64,000 nucleotides of DNA, taken from a virus. Numbering within the stretch: position 1 is the stretch's first letter; each line of letters starts with the position of its first letter. The stretch spans positions 32,001 to 96,000 of IMG/VR virus record IMGVR_UViG_3300014613_000017; one strand, given 5' to 3'. Below the pieces are notes generated by a model. It was not told the origin of the DNA. It searched no databases and saw only the letters and a program-made list of their open reading frames with translations. Positions 6,507 through 53,035 of the stretch are shown in pieces. The position numbers and the translations under genes are program-made.

Positions 6507-6704
6507 CTAAACATTTACTTTTTGAAGATACTTGGTTGCGAATGAGCCACTAAATCCTTTTAGCATTACTACTGTGTAATCGTGATTTGGGTGATGTTTA
6601 AACTCATTACTATCACAAGTCCAAACCTTCCCATCATTCACTTCTGCCTCAATGGAAGTGTGCATTACAACCTTATCTCCTTTATACAAAGGCTTTACGC
6701 TCAT
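6507..6704 (-). CDS. Small hypothetical phage protein
   Basis: GGAGG RBS. Confidence 0.65.
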   Translation of the reverse strand: MSVKPLYKGDKVVMHTSIEAEVNDGKVWTCDSNEFKHHPNHDYTVVMLKGFSGSFATKYLQKVNV

Positions 6705-9409: not shown

Positions 9410-10135
9410 TTATTGTATTGCTGACTCCGCTACTTTAAATCCTAAATCTTCAGCTTCTTTTTTAACAAATCCACCATCTAAATGCATGCAATAAACCCTA
9501 TCTCTTACGTCCGACTTCACCAATTCATCTAATTTTCTCAAGGAGAGATGTACATTCCCTTCGTAATCAGCCTTACAAGTGTCTTGATAGAAATAATCAA
9601 AGACTCCACTGTGCAGATTTCCAAGGATGGTTTTTGGAATATCATTAGAATCTCCACTGTAATATGCAACTTTACCTTCAAACTGAATAACATATCCATA
9701 GCAATCTAGCTCTTTTACATGTGTAACATCTACAGACTCCACTAGCATTTTTAAATTATCAATGATTACATTGTTATGAAACTGTACTAAGTTATATGAG
9801 TTTTGTTTTACTCCCACCATTTTTAACAAGCGACTGATTTCTAAGAAGTAAGGTGCGTAAACAGTAACATTAGGCTTCATCATTTCTCCCATTGCATAAT
9901 AGCCGTAGAATATTAAATCCCCTAATGAGCCAACATGATCTGGATGTGTATGAGTTAATAATACTGAAATATCTTCAATTCCTTCTAATAGCCCTGCCTC
10001 AATGATTCGATCAAAAGTGTTGCTACCACAATCAATTAGAAACAAGCTTTTGTCTTTTTTGATAAATGCTCCATTGTTGCCTAGTTTTGTATTGAATGCA
10101 CTTCCTGTGCCAATAAATTTCAACATGTTATTCAT
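9410..10135 (-). CDS. apyc1: Metallo-beta-lactamase-fold hydrolase, Apyc1-like anti-Pycsar cyclic nucleotide phosphodiesterase
   Basis: GTGSAFN, FLIDCG, THTHPDHVGSLGDLIFY, YYSGD, DTCKADYEGNVHLS, YCMHLD match the Apyc1 subfamily as recalled. Confidence 0.8.
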   Translation of the reverse strand: MNNMLKFIGTGSAFNTKLGNNGAFIKKDKSLFLIDCGSNTFDRIIEAGLLEGIEDISVLLTHTHPDHVGSLGDLIFYGYYAMGEMMKPNVTVYAPYFLEISRLLKMVGVKQNSYNLVQFHNNVIIDNLKMLVESVDVTHVKELDCYGYVIQFEGKVAYYSGDSNDIPKTILGNLHSGVFDYFYQDTCKADYEGNVHLSLRKLDELVKSDVRDRVYCMHLDGGFVKKEAEDLGFKVAESAIQ

Positions 10136-11759: not shown

Positions 11760-11966
11760 TTAATTAAACTCTTTTTTGTGTTTCTCAATAACTTTACGCA
11801 TCATTGTTTTACCACTTCTAGTTCCAATGAATACAGTCTTTGCTAATAGCCCTTCTGCATATAGTTTTAGATATGCCTTTTGCCATTCAAGCAACTCAAA
11901 ACCAAGATATTTTTCAGCGAAATAGGCAGGATCATTTTTACATTTTTGAAATTCTTGATTGTTCAC
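11760..11966 (-). CDS. 68-aa microprotein resembling the N-terminus of a large terminase ATPase
   Basis: KCKNDPAYFAEKYL...LLEWQK...TRSGKT (Q-motif plus Walker A-like). Confidence 0.65.
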   Translation of the reverse strand: MNNQEFQKCKNDPAYFAEKYLGFELLEWQKAYLKLYAEGLLAKTVFIGTRSGKTMMRKVIEKHKKEFN

Positions 11967-14456: not shown

Positions 14457-14489
14457 ACTAGCAACCCCTCTCCTATTAAAATTTTCGTT

Positions 14490-14621
14490 TTATTCGATAA
14501 CGTCATTTTCTTCGTCTTTTTCGTCATCTAGCCAAACTATCCATCCTTGCCCTCTAATCCCTTGTGTATCAAGGGTTTCAGGCGACTCTATAACACTTCC
14601 GTTCTTAAACACGATTTTCAC
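14490..14621 (-). CDS. 43-aa microprotein resembling the terminase ATPase NGS/Walker B segment
   Basis: Manual translation (GTG start, GGAGG RBS): VKIVFKNGSVIESPETLDTQGIRGQGWIVWLDDEKDEENDVIE; flanked by sites 14477 and 14637. Confidence 0.65.
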   Translation of the reverse strand: MKIVFKNGSVIESPETLDTQGIRGQGWIVWLDDEKDEENDVIE

Positions 14622-14656
14622 CTTTTCAACCTCCGATAAAATGCACATTTTAGTCT

Positions 14657-15034
14657 TCAATAGATATTATTTCTGAAATTATCGAACAACTTATTTACCT
14701 TCTTTGTTACAGCACTGTCTCTATAAAAGCTCATCTCACTGTATTGTCTTGGATTTGGATTGTCAGGATCGCTTGATTGGCAACCTTCTCGATTTAATTG
14801 GTGCTGGAAATTTTCTTCTGAACACCATTTCAATCCACCCCAACCAACCCACTTATCATCGGATGCTGTTACTTCCAAATATCCATCAAGCTGATTTAAA
14901 CGTTTGAGCATAAGTAGATACTCGCTAAACTGATCTTCCCAATCCTTATAGCTACTTCCAAACATCATTGTTAGTTCATCTGTGAACTGAACACGGACTA
15001 TTTTATTTCTTTGCTTACCCATAGCACACCTCAA
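14657..15034 (-). CDS. Hypothetical phage protein
   Basis: GAGGTG RBS. Confidence 0.65.
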   Translation of the reverse strand: MRCAMGKQRNKIVRVQFTDELTMMFGSSYKDWEDQFSEYLLMLKRLNQLDGYLEVTASDDKWVGWGGLKWCSEENFQHQLNREGCQSSDPDNPNPRQYSEMSFYRDSAVTKKVNKLFDNFRNNIY

Positions 15035-16504: not shown

Positions 16505-17152
16505 TTAATTGGCTTCACCCTCATCTTCGTCTTTCCACATTTGTAGCCAACTTGCTATAACATCGTATCTGATTTCATCGTAAACTTCTGAACTTATAAA
16601 CCATTCATCCCAATCTTTATTATGCTTGATAGAATTGCAACCTTTGCAAGCTAAAACACAGTTATCAATACCATCTGAGCCATTGTTATAAGCATGATCT
16701 TTGTGTAGATTGTTATTATATTTAGCTTTAGCCTCGGTTTCACTGATGCCACAATACATACAGGAACTGTTAGCGTAATCATATAATATAGCCAATTCTT
16801 CATTGGATATGTCATGATTTTTATGAGATTGTCTTTTTTCTCTGTATGTCTTAATCTTGTCTTTGTTGTTGCGTTGCCATTCTAAATACTTACCACTTTT
16901 TCTATCTTCTCTGTTTCTCTCAAGTCTTTTTGCTTTATAGTGCTCTCTAGCATCTCTTTCTTTGTAATATTCTCTCCATTTTGTCTCGTTTTCTTTTTTC
17001 CAATTAGCCGAATATTCTCTAGAACATTCCTTACATGAGGAAAATAACCCATCTCTACTGCTTTTATGCTTATAGAAAAACTCTGATGTTGATGGGAATG
17101 TTTCCAAACACTTCTTGCATTGCTTCTCCAAAACTTCACCTTCCTCTCCCAA
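16505..17152 (-). CDS. HNH endonuclease with N-terminal C4 zinc finger
   Basis: CKKC...FFY...DG...CKEC; CMYCG...LHKDHA...NCVLACKGCNSIKH. Confidence 0.85.
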   Translation of the reverse strand: MGEEGEVLEKQCKKCLETFPSTSEFFYKHKSSRDGLFSSCKECSREYSANWKKENETKWREYYKERDAREHYKAKRLERNREDRKSGKYLEWQRNNKDKIKTYREKRQSHKNHDISNEELAILYDYANSSCMYCGISETEAKAKYNNNLHKDHAYNNGSDGIDNCVLACKGCNSIKHNKDWDEWFISSEVYDEIRYDVIASWLQMWKDEDEGEAN

Positions 17153-24051: not shown

Positions 24052-24297
24052 CTAAATTACTTCAATACTCACTCTGTCTTTAGGAAAAATTTCTTGAATT
24101 TCAGCATGATCTGTCCAAAGTTTATTTTCTCTCTCCCATGTGAATAGCGAAGGGTAGACAAGTCGTTTTTGTACAGTGTCATACAAAGTGATGGATTGAT
24201 TTGTAATGTTTCTGATTTTTAAATCCGTTGCCACCACCAAGTATAGATTGTCATTCGTTTTAATTGCCATTCCTTCTTCTATAAATTCAAATTTCAT
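24052..24297 (-). CDS. Hypothetical protein
   Basis: GAGG RBS. Confidence 0.55.
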   Translation of the reverse strand: MKFEFIEEGMAIKTNDNLYLVVATDLKIRNITNQSITLYDTVQKRLVYPSLFTWERENKLWTDHAEIQEIFPKDRVSIEVI

Positions 24298-24311
24298 ATC
24301 CTCACTCCTTC

Positions 24312-24668
24312 CTATTTCATTTCTTTCTTAATCTCCATAACAATTTGTTTGACTGTTGATTCAACTTGATTCTTAACAAACTCATTCATACGCAATTCAA
24401 CTTTTTCTTTGAGTTTTTGCTCAAATTTGATGTCAATTAAATGTGAGCCTGTTTTATTAAATTCTCTTCCTAGTAGAAAGTCTGTGCTTACATTGAAGAA
24501 ATCTGCAATCCTGACTAGCATCTCTAGATTGGGTTCTCTGACACCATTTTCATAGCCAGAGATAGTGGATTCAGCAACCTTAAAATAAGTTGCCAGCTCT
24601 TTTTGTGTTAGTTTATTTCTTTTCCTCAAGTGAATCAAGGTCTCTGCTAGTTTTGTCATTTTTCTCAC
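24312..24668 (-). CDS. XRE-family HTH regulator
   Basis: LRKRNKLTQKELA...ISGYENGVREP...IADFFNVSTDFLLGR. Confidence 0.9.
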   Translation of the reverse strand: MRKMTKLAETLIHLRKRNKLTQKELATYFKVAESTISGYENGVREPNLEMLVRIADFFNVSTDFLLGREFNKTGSHLIDIKFEQKLKEKVELRMNEFVKNQVESTVKQIVMEIKKEMK

Positions 24669-35348: not shown

Positions 35349-35672
35349 ATGAATGATATTAAGCTACATTTTAATACAGATCAGAAAGTATACACTAATA
35401 AAGAATTGAATGAGTCACAAAAGAAACATTTTATAATGCTGAATGAACTGATACAACTTGATAAACTTAATGACAATCAGGTTGATACACTTATTAATGA
35501 TTATGACAATGTTCTTATTAAAACATTCATGCAAGATAGTTATTTCCATAATGGATACGCTATGTGTAAAGTATATATTGATTATTGCTATAGTAAGCCT
35601 ATTGATGTGTATGTAAGTGTAAAGAAGTTGCATGAGTTGATGAGTAATAAAGAAGTTGCCGTTTATGTGTAG
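35349..35672 (+). CDS. Early hypothetical protein
   Basis: Repeated leader with RBS. Confidence 0.6.
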   Translation: MNDIKLHFNTDQKVYTNKELNESQKKHFIMLNELIQLDKLNDNQVDTLINDYDNVLIKTFMQDSYFHNGYAMCKVYIDYCYSKPIDVYVSVKKLHELMSNKEVAVYV

Positions 35673-50376: not shown

Positions 50377-51261
50377 ATGACAACTAAGAAAGAATCAACT
50401 AAAAAACCTGCCGTAAAAAAGACTTGTCTCAAGTGTTCCAAAGAGCAGGTCTTTTCTAACTTCTATAGTACGACTGACACTGACTACTACGAAGACGGAA
50501 AATTACCTATTTGTAAAGGTTGTTGCCAAAGAAATATCGAGGCAAAAGGATTCGAAGGTTTTCAAGCATTGATGAGAATGATAAACAAACCAATTTATGA
50601 TGATTTGTTTAAGGGTGATTATTTTGAGTACGTAAAGAATATTAATTCGTTACCACAGTATCGCTCTAATACTTTTCTTGATAGTTCTTTATTTAAGGAT
50701 AACAAGTCCTTAGAGCTAACTAAGAGAGCTAAACCGAAAGACCTTACTGCTGATGAACTTCGAGAAGCTGAAGACTTTTTTGGTCTCGGTTTTAGCGAGC
50801 AGGAGTATATATGGTTGAATTCAGAGTTTGAAGACTATGGTTCACAATTCGATATATCTGCAAAACCAATGCAAAACTTAATACGTGAAATCTGTCTTAC
50901 TCAGCTAGACATTAGAAATAAGAGAACAGCTAAACAAGATGTAAAAAATGAATTAAAAACACTACAAGATTTGCTAGGCTCGTCAAATTTGAAGCCCATG
51001 CAAGAGACAGGAGCACCCTCAATAGATCAAGAAACATTCGGAACTTTAATTAAGAAGTGGGAAGATTCAACCCCTATACCCGATGATGAAATGTGGAAAG
51101 ACACTGATACAATTGGTAAATATTTAAAAGTGTGGTTCACAGGTCATCTAATGCGAATGTTCAGCATTGAGAATAAAGATGAAGAAGAGTATTATGCTGA
51201 AATAAATAAATACACTGTTGAAGCTTCTGAAGACGAAGGTGAAGAAGATGACAGGACATAA
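50377..51261 (+). CDS. Putative terminase small subunit (YonG-like)
   Basis: Directly upstream of terL; N-terminal CLKC...CKGC; TFGTLIKKWE. Confidence 0.5.
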   Translation: MTTKKESTKKPAVKKTCLKCSKEQVFSNFYSTTDTDYYEDGKLPICKGCCQRNIEAKGFEGFQALMRMINKPIYDDLFKGDYFEYVKNINSLPQYRSNTFLDSSLFKDNKSLELTKRAKPKDLTADELREAEDFFGLGFSEQEYIWLNSEFEDYGSQFDISAKPMQNLIREICLTQLDIRNKRTAKQDVKNELKTLQDLLGSSNLKPMQETGAPSIDQETFGTLIKKWEDSTPIPDDEMWKDTDTIGKYLKVWFTGHLMRMFSIENKDEEEYYAEINKYTVEASEDEGEEDDRT

Positions 51262-53035
51262 AAACTTTCAGGTTAATCGAAACAAAGCTACAAAAGGCGT
51301 AAATATTTTCAACTCTGGACGAAATCATAGAACCAAGCAATCTAAATCAGAGAAGATGATGAACGGGGTTGCAATATGGGCTTCATGGTATCGTTTTCGT
51401 ATGGATATTTTTGTAAAAGATTACTTAGGAATACAACTTAAACTGTTTCAGATTTTATTGATTTACGCAATGCAAAACAATCATTTCTTCATGTATCTCG
51501 CAAGTCGTGGACAAGGAAAATCGTTCTTATCTGCTGTTTATGCAGTGTCTCGTTGTATTCTTTATCCAAATACAATCGTCGTGATTGCCTCAGGAACAAA
51601 AGGTCAAGCCACCAGCGTCCTAAAGAAAATAGAAGAAATGATGCCCGACTCTCCTAATCTAAGGCGAGAAATATCAGATATAAAAACAGGAGCAAACAAC
51701 GCAGAGTGCTCATTTCATAATGGTTCTGTAATACGGGTCGTAACTTCAAATGACAATGCAAGATCGGCTCGTGCCCACATAATTCTAGTTGATGAATTCC
51801 GTATGGTTGACTTACAAGTAATTTCAAAAGTATTAAGAAAGTTTTTAACTACACCAAGACAAGCTGGTTATCATGCTAATCCTGAGTTTGCTCACCTACA
51901 AGAACGTAACAAGGAGATTTACTTAAGCTCATGTTTCTATAAATCACATTGGTCATGGGCAAGAGCACAAACCTACTTCAAGGCAATGGTAGAAGGCAAA
52001 AAGTATTTCATATGTAGCTTACCCTATCAGTTAGCCATCAAAGAAAATCTTCTTATGAGGGATCAAGTTTTAGATGAAATGTCTGAATCAGATTTCGACC
52101 CTATTGGTTGGGAGATGGAGATGCAAGCATTATGGTTTGGAGAGAATGAACGCTCTTACTTCAGTTTCGAAGACTTAAATGTAAACAGGAAAGTAGCAAA
52201 AGCATTTTATCCTTCTGAAATAGCTGAACATATAAATGATAAAAAAATAGCTATTAAGAAAGAAAAAGGCGAGATTAGAATAGTCTCAGCAGATATTGCA
52301 GCAAAAGGCGGTTCTGCCAATGATGCGACTGCACTGTTTTGTGTAAGACTTATTCCAATTAGTAATGGTTATGAGAGACAAGTGGTATATGCTGAAACTT
52401 TTGAAGGTGGAATTGTCACAGACCAAAGTTTGAGAATAAATCAGCTTTATCATGAATTCGCAGCAGATTATATTGTGCTTGATACGATGAACGCAGGTAT
52501 TTTCTTACTAGATATTCTTGGTCAAGGTCAAATAAACGTAAGAAATGGACAGGAATACCCTCCATTAAAATGTATGAACGATGATGATTTGGCGAAACGC
52601 TGTGTCTATTCGGATGCTCCGAAGGTTATTTACTCTATTCAAGGTAGTGCAAAATTAAATAGTAAAATTGCCGTTTCAATGAGAAACGCCTTAAGAAATA
52701 AAAAACTTAAACTCATGATTCATGAAAATGACGCAGAAGAGATATTAACAAGCATTAAGGGGTATAGCAATCTACCAGAAGACTTAAAGATTAAGTTTAA
52801 AATGCCATTTATACAAACAAGCTTACTTATTAACGAAACAATAAACCTTGAAGCAAGTTATAACGACCAAGGTGAAGTATCACTAAAAGAAGTGGGAAGT
52901 GCACGAAAAGATAGATACTCCTCACTAAGTTATTTAAACATGTTCGCTGATACACTTGAGATTAAAAATCGAAAGCAAAAAACAGATGTTGATATTTCAA
53001 AAATGTTTATGATTAAAAAAGGCAAGTCTTATTAA
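51248..53035 (+). CDS. terL: Terminase large subunit (YonF-like)
   Basis: ASRGQGKS Walker A, FHNGSVI, ILVDEF Walker B, SADIA nuclease Asp, KDRYSS. Confidence 0.92.
   Translation: MTGHKNFQVNRNKATKGVNIFNSGRNHRTKQSKSEKMMNGVAIWASWYRFRMDIFVKDYLGIQLKLFQILLIYAMQNNHFFMYLASRGQGKSFLSAVYAVSRCILYPNTIVVIASGTKGQATSVLKKIEEMMPDSPNLRREISDIKTGANNAECSFHNGSVIRVVTSNDNARSARAHIILVDEFRMVDLQVISKVLRKFLTTPRQAGYHANPEFAHLQERNKEIYLSSCFYKSHWSWARAQTYFKAMVEGKKYFICSLPYQLAIKENLLMRDQVLDEMSESDFDPIGWEMEMQALWFGENERSYFSFEDLNVNRKVAKAFYPSEIAEHINDKKIAIKKEKGEIRIVSADIAAKGGSANDATALFCVRLIPISNGYERQVVYAETFEGGIVTDQSLRINQLYHEFAADYIVLDTMNAGIFLLDILGQGQINVRNGQEYPPLKCMNDDDLAKRCVYSDAPKVIYSIQGSAKLNSKIAVSMRNALRNKKLKLMIHENDAEEILTSIKGYSNLPEDLKIKFKMPFIQTSLLINETINLEASYNDQGEVSLKEVGSARKDRYSSLSYLNMFADTLEIKNRKQKTDVDISKMFMIKKGKSY

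Follow-up and report, generated by a model that had tools for sequence, protein, structure and literature searches.

Among phage proteins, the terminase is the one most widely used by bacterial immune sensors. Avs1–3 sense the large terminase (TerL), and Avs2 engages it through an interface of about 2,800 Å2 that comprises the folded ATPase domain with a bridging ATP (PMC13601566); both Avs2 and Avs3 read the folded surface. Upx, by comparison, has been modelled in a 2026 study as binding unfolded TerL core strands by beta-augmentation (PMC13601566). Two phage-encoded proteins are the nearest described relatives, by kind, of the gene considered here. T4 vs.8, a stand-alone paralogue of the TerL ATPase domain, activates EcAvs2 when the two are co-expressed (PMC13601566), while TerI, a small protein of Listeria prophages, blocks the packaging of invading-phage DNA via the terminase complex (10.1101/2025.02.27.640495). 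In the literature we found no account of a microprotein consisting of one strand segment of a terminase. Here we describe a gene for a 43-residue protein that may belong to this kind.

The gene occurs in a virus record from a groundwater metagenome, a 127-kb contig of which bases 32001–96000 form the window (the whole 64,000-nucleotide stretch analysed; positions below are window positions unless stated otherwise). Judged by its terminase and its yop-type genes, the source phage is a distant SPbeta-like temperate phage, and its own intact TerL is 53.6% identical to the SPbeta/phi3T terminase. The 43-aa gene lies 37 kb from this intact terL, as a small separate gene with its own ribosome-binding site (RBS) and stop (Table 1), within an extended series of small genes on the minus strand, the counterpart of the yop/yoq early region. 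Nearby are MrpR/YopR-, YopQ-, and YopP-like genes, an HNH gene, a DUF1256 gene, and an Apyc1-like gene. The last of these (9410–10135, minus strand) encodes a metallo-beta-lactamase-fold protein that matches the Pfam Anti-Pycsar Apyc1 family at 51.6 bits against a cut-off of 50. The HNH endonuclease gene (16505–17152, minus strand) is free-standing within the small-gene array, comparable to yoqL of SPbeta. The upstream neighbor (14657–15034, minus strand) belongs to PHROG 32581, a group of unknown function, and the sole match to its product in phage records is from Psychrobacillus phage PVJ1 (54% identity).

Table 1. Features of the locus and of the sequences compared with it (window positions; L003 and L004 are the metagenome contigs that carry relatives of the 43-aa gene).
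Feature	Position	Strand	Description
43-aa microprotein CDS	14490..14621	(-)	GTG start, TAA stop; residues 2-29 TerL-like, residues 32-43 acidic tail
RBS GGAGG	14630..14634	(-)	8-nt spacer to GTG; identical in L003, GAGGTG at the equivalent place in L004
Upstream TAAAA-N6-TTTTA site	14637..14652	(-)	Just upstream of the RBS; equivalent in L004 perfect, one mismatch in L003
Downstream TAAAA-N6-TTTTA site	14477..14492	(-)	First triplet (minus strand) is the stop codon; perfect in L003 and L004
68-aa mini-gene, T4 type	11760..11966	(-)	TerL N-terminus through Walker A loop; single-gene cassette ending in TAAAA-N6-TTTTA
Intact large terminase (YonF / Terminase_6N type)	51218..53035	(+)	Pfam Terminase_6N and TerL_ATPase; reference for comparison

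The reading frame offers three candidate starts (TTG 14660, ATG 14648, and GTG 14621), and a Shine-Dalgarno sequence is found at the GTG only. On the minus strand this codon occupies 14621–14619 and the TAA stop 14492–14490. The L004 relative has an ATG at the exact residue encoded by GTG here, 7 nt behind its GAGGTG RBS, and this coincidence fixes the length of the product at 43 residues. The GGAGG RBS and the 43-aa ORF with a GTG start, as claimed in the first-pass annotation, are present in the sequence, the start being backed by L004. The additional remark that the ORF track had missed the gene is untrue for public gene callers, as a 52-aa version beginning at ATG 14648 is on record (P0004); that ATG sits inside the upstream junction site and is without an RBS.

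The product is strongly acidic, with a pI of about 4.1 and a net charge of about -7.5 (-7.5 to -9.5 across its family). It contains no Walker A P-loop, adenine-binding Q motif, C-motif, or nuclease domain and ends 11 residues past its acidic pair; it cannot act as an ATPase. AlphaFold2, run on an alignment of the three family members, returned a pLDDT of 54, with low-confidence short strands flanking an NGS turn and a disordered tail.

The first-pass annotation had drawn a parallel between this protein and the phage's own TerL. In pairwise comparison the parallel shrinks to a heptapeptide: BLASTP aligned F-x-NGSVI alone (6/7 identical, E 0.21). There is no nucleotide similarity between the matching stretch and the resident terL (14 of 21 bases); the codons differ, and the 43-aa gene is therefore no recent copy. 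No terminase match to the protein appeared in Pfam, PHROGs, or NCBIfam even at E up to 10, a profile search of the PDB gave nothing usable, and phmmer, run exhaustively on 1.8 billion proteins, returned no terminase. The only library matches, Ubiquitin_5 (E 0.14) and FlgF (E 1.2), were dismissed. The phage's own TerL, when searched with phmmer against PDB sequences, also had no match.

A clade-matched profile and empirical controls are needed before a microprotein can be called a fragment: the likeness was first read as chance on a T4-type profile, and the YonF-type profile revised that reading. The T4-type HMM, built from 12 T4-type TerLs (relatives of the 11760–11966 ORF) plus the phage's own TerL, gave the 43-aa ORF 0.3 bits, rank 24 among 883 window ORFs. 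With hhalign, the T4-type alignment yielded a P of 0.008; of 420 random ORFs, 2 did equally well, and one of these two aligned to the same TerL position. The YonF-type alignment comprises 13 sequences, the phage's own TerL and 12 phage TerLs at 24–54% identity. Against it, hhalign placed residues 2–29 on residues 163–191 of the phage's own TerL with a score of 28.9 and a P of 2.5e-4 (to 3.5e-4). The two relatives scored 26.5 and 26.1 and the family profile 28.4, while none of 940 random six-frame ORFs and none of 434 shuffles (1,374 controls in total) scored above 22.2; the reversed sequence scored 9.5. The match falls at the same TerL place when the phage's own TerL is left out of the alignment and in close, middle, and far subsets of it (P 0.002–0.014).

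By itself, HMMER left the 43-aa ORF short of significance against the YonF-type profile, ranking it 5th (E 0.079) among 1,678 six-frame ORFs of the 127-kb genome, with the 11760–11966 ORF 3rd. Two other small ORFs gave weak matches in the same scan, one at window positions 35349–35672 (plus strand) and one at genome positions 24236–24490 (minus strand), with E values of 0.007 and 0.042; hhalign lent them no support (P 0.09 and 0.012), and they are probably noise, although both are in accessory blocks. The YonF-type comparison supports a resemblance of residues 2–29 to the TerL core segment that appears modestly greater than chance. Corrected for the few hundred ORFs that might have been picked, this likeness would range from borderline (about 0.05–0.2) to moderately significant.

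The TerL-like part takes in an NGS-turn hairpin, a loop with an Arg, and most of the hydrophobic strand ahead of Walker B. The acidic pair differs among members, reading WLDDE here, WLDIE in L003, and ILDE in L004, where it follows a 5-residue insertion. Across the family, the distance from RG to the acidic residues varies by 4–5 residues, the hydrophobic strand being present and the DE out of register. Given this lack of a conserved register and the variable spacing, "Walker B" is too strong a label. Of the description "NGS strand plus Walker B" in the first-pass annotation, the part that covers the NGS hairpin and the hydrophobic strand is supported, while for the acidic pair the wording is too strong; its parallel with the phage's own TerL stands at the level of profiles (residues 2–29) and fails pairwise. 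It had envisaged homologs with a conserved NGS..RG..hhDE pattern; two relatives were found, and across the family the DE is not conserved in register.

We favor, with a probability of roughly 0.4, an explanation in which the 43-aa protein derives from TerL, is not catalytic, and acts as a strand mimic toward either a sensor of unfolded terminase or a terminase complex; descent of the gene from TerL, taken alone, is probable. In this reading the gene is an accessory cassette, translated independently, that an SPbeta-like temperate phage carries among its early yop/yoq-like small genes, and its product is most likely a diverged, non-catalytic offcut of a YonF-type TerL ATPase, composed of the NGS hairpin, RG loop, pre-Walker B strand, and an acidic tail. 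This mimic may pair by beta-augmentation with a protein that normally encounters the corresponding segment in nascent or unfolded terminase, where it is exposed. The partner might be a sensor with which the host detects unfolded terminase strands, for which the protein would serve as a decoy, or a component of a terminase complex, in which case it would interfere with packaging. The modelled strand binding by Upx and the packaging block by TerI would each offer a plausible setting for such a mimic.

In ASCE ATPases, the strands matched by residues 2–29 lie buried in the ATPase core. As these strands are buried in the intact terminase, a free 43-mer cannot imitate the surface of the folded enzyme. 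A sensor of unfolded strands resembling Upx is conceivable, and no other kind of sensor would fit a decoy. The Apyc1-like anti-defense gene in the same region and the two short strands beside the NGS turn in the low-confidence AlphaFold2 model were counted in favor of the strand mimic.

The main rival to the strand mimic, and a serious possibility, is that the TerL likeness is a coincidence, or a convergence on a strand-turn-strand arrangement, in an ordinary small and very acidic early protein. Its acidic tail would then be the active part and might, for instance, inhibit a DNA-binding enzyme of the host. Small acidic phage inhibitors of DNA-binding enzymes include phi29 p56 and Ugi. The family-wide negative charge and a conserved EEN-x-x-IE tail are consistent with this type of protein, as is the location in an accessory region with an Apyc1-like gene. 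The similarity to TerL is short, lying mostly in F-x-NGS-x-I, and spans 7 residues in the pairwise match; no curated family or solved structure matches the protein; and with the T4-type profile, random ORFs scored as high, including the one that fell at the same TerL place. However, 3/3 members score 26–29 against the YonF-type alignment, always on the same TerL segment, where all 1,374 controls stay at or below 22.2, and a clear TerL-derived mini-gene is found 2.5 kb away in the same array. Should the likeness be coincidental, this gene would simply add to the orphan early genes.

The family has three members, namely this ORF and its relatives on two metagenome contigs, L003 (85% identity) and L004 (68% identity). 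A search of 5.8 billion clustered proteins returned the phage's own product (as the 52-aa call) and the 85% relative, and the third member came from the exhaustive phmmer search, which covered 1.8 billion representative proteins. Two other phmmer matches were rejected: P0006, a eukaryote-like protein with four MIB_HERC2 repeats in which each stretch reaches only 8–16 bits, and P0007, a repeat artifact. No further relatives of the locus were found in viral, genome, and metagenome collections. In phage records there was no match by megablast to the surrounding 2 kb and none by tblastn to the protein at E up to 10, and the ESM Atlas gave no usable match to the protein. A DNA pattern derived from the conserved PETLDTQ stretch retrieved unrelated matches only, from other organisms, of which at least two resemble hairpins beside tRNA genes.

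Across protein divergence of about 30%, the start, RBS, and stop of the gene are kept; the RBS and start are conserved in all three contigs, with ATG as the start in one. Estimates of dN/dS are 0.19–0.21 in all three family pairs (Nei-Gojobori; small counts). The DNA homology to L003 begins near the upstream junction site and stops exactly at the end of the downstream site, and among the family contigs homology is confined to the ORF and its two junction sites, with neighboring genes that differ in all three. In an estuary metagenome from another study, a 151-nt contig covers 14475–14624, spanning from just past the downstream site of the ORF to its start codon, with one synonymous difference; the surrounding 2 kb was not found in the sequencing run that contains this contig. 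Among the sequencing runs listed for the sequence, none is of RNA. From the conserved start and RBS, the dN/dS values, the differing neighbors, and the estuary contig, we conclude that 14490–14621 is a real small gene equipped with translation signals of its own, that it is under purifying selection, and that it is a mobile, swappable single-gene cassette. Two other identities, a leader peptide of the neighboring gene and a decaying pseudogene, are very unlikely given the same data.

These data also bear on whether the gene is a leftover cassette that descends from TerL but in which the likeness is now irrelevant, the protein having acquired an unrelated role or being carried along as an almost neutral passenger when cassettes are shuffled. 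Members are very few and scattered (three contigs from searches of 5.8 and 1.8 billion proteins), and both the neighbors and the C-terminal half vary, as might be expected of such a passenger. We nevertheless consider this history quite unlikely, as dN/dS is about 0.2, the start, RBS, and stop have been retained, and the most conserved part of the protein is exactly the TerL-like N-terminal 25 residues, although conservation within a family of only three close members says little.

Perfect junction sites on both sides of the ORF were part of the first-pass annotation, and both are present (Table 1). In the relatives, TAAAA-N6-TTTTA is found at L003 200–215 and at L004 259–274 and 438–453. The window contains 25 such sites (4389–61015), where 1.05 +/- 0.93 are expected, an enrichment of ~25-fold. 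SPbeta itself (NC_001884, 60001–110000) has 15 in 50 kb against 0.94 expected (~16-fold), often overlapping stop codons, and the sequence is enriched in another SPbeta-like contig (L030/L031) as well. Given this enrichment, the motif is a clade-wide junction motif of SPbeta-like phages and is not particular to terminase-like cassettes. It differs from the published SPBRE/MrpR operator, a 15-bp motif present in about ten promoter regions (PMC10516654).

The mini-gene at 11760–11966 matches the TerL family PHROG 5989 (E 4.6e-5) and the T4-type TerL HMM (E 2.4e-8), and its hhalign P is 1.6e-13 against T4-type TerLs and 7.6e-6 against the YonF type. On these profiles it is clearly a true homolog of the TerL N-terminus. 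A 68-aa homolog (P0010, 54% identity) is encoded at 6629–6835 of L030, an SPbeta-like contig with AimR, YopX, and MrpR. The N-terminal part of the two proteins (KNDPAYFAEKY..WQKAYLKL) is invariant, and the Walker A Thr is replaced by Lys in P0010. According to the first-pass annotation, this cassette and the one at 14490–14621 copy the two catalytic segments of the terminase. The TerL homology of the 11760–11966 ORF holds, but the ORF is not a copy of the phage's own TerL, and its Walker A Thr is not shared by P0010.

The proposed "split" pairing of the two cassettes is not supported. The 43-aa ORF has the opposite clade preference (hhalign P 0.012–0.03 against the T4 type versus 2e-4 against the YonF type), and the two cassettes therefore do not appear to be pieces of a single TerL. 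They lie 2.5 kb apart, and their order on the minus strand is wrong for pieces of one gene. The contig that encodes P0010 is the sole other contig with a homolog of the 11760–11966 ORF, and no relative of the 43-aa ORF was found in 26.7 kb of its 47 kb; L003 and L004 are too short to show co-occurrence. We see the two genes as separate TerL-like cassettes and not as halves of one design.

It is very improbable that they form a split epitope decoy that offers the two catalytic segments to Avs-type sensors. Both mini-genes resemble segments of the TerL ATPase, and TerL is what Avs1–3 sense (PMC13601566), but Avs2 binds the folded ATPase domain together with ATP over a large shape-complementary surface, and known non-terminase ligands are folded and ATPase-like (PMC13601566). 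This requirement for a folded domain and ATP makes the Avs-decoy reading unlikely. In addition, the two match different TerL clades and were not found together on the P0010 contig, neither the Walker A Thr nor the Walker B DE is kept in homologs, and known anti-Avs proteins act by other means (10.1101/2025.06.06.658234). Hardly any weight attaches to the idea that 14490–14621 is not protein-coding in practice and serves as a leader or regulatory ORF, or as a structured RNA, for the downstream gene: the ORF is very short and contains an imperfect hairpin, but no two of the three contigs have the same downstream gene, a non-synonymous change in L003 disrupts the hairpin, and per site the changes are predominantly synonymous.

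If phages do answer terminase sensing with free terminase strands, as the strand-mimic explanation would have it, this would be a new class of counter-defense that could be tested simply with a 43-residue peptide. A more general version is unlikely on present comparisons: in it, SPbeta-like phages would maintain a set of very small genes whose products offer individual buried TerL strand segments as free peptides, either to block an Upx-like groove or to enter a rival's folding terminase. Mimicry of this sort, at the level of peptides, would be new for phages. The gene itself is real and its proposed function inexpensive to test, though the homology is short and the family numbers three.

Compared with known proteins, residues 2–29 align to the NGS hairpin, Arg loop, and pre-Walker B strand of the YonF / Terminase_6N type of TerL (SPbeta YonF, with T4 gp17 as the studied relative), and the RG-to-DE spacing of 8 in the phage's own TerL equals that in this copy of the 43-aa ORF. 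However, a large terminase has about 600 residues versus 43 here, and the match to the family profile is local, covering 28 columns (P about 3e-4). The 11760–11966 gene and its homolog P0010 are likewise TerL-segment-like microproteins encoded by a single-gene cassette with TAAAA-N6-TTTTA in the same type of array, but their TerL homology is clear, is of T4 and not YonF type, and involves the N-terminus and Walker A in place of the NGS/Walker B region.

The gene resembles vs.8 in being a phage accessory gene, apparently derived from TerL, that is separate from the working terminase; in contrast, vs.8 has the full ATPase-like fold, both Walker motifs (A and B) included (PMC13601566), whereas the 43-aa ORF is a fifth of the size and contains one strand region. 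TerI, compared here by its description, is similarly a small temperate-phage protein whose business, as is proposed for the 43-aa protein, is with the terminase; unlike the latter it is not described as a terminase fragment, and its function was shown experimentally, while that of the 43-aa protein is a proposal. Thus placed among these systems, the 43-aa gene would encode a kind of TerL-derived accessory protein that is neither a terminase nor a vs.8-type paralogue.
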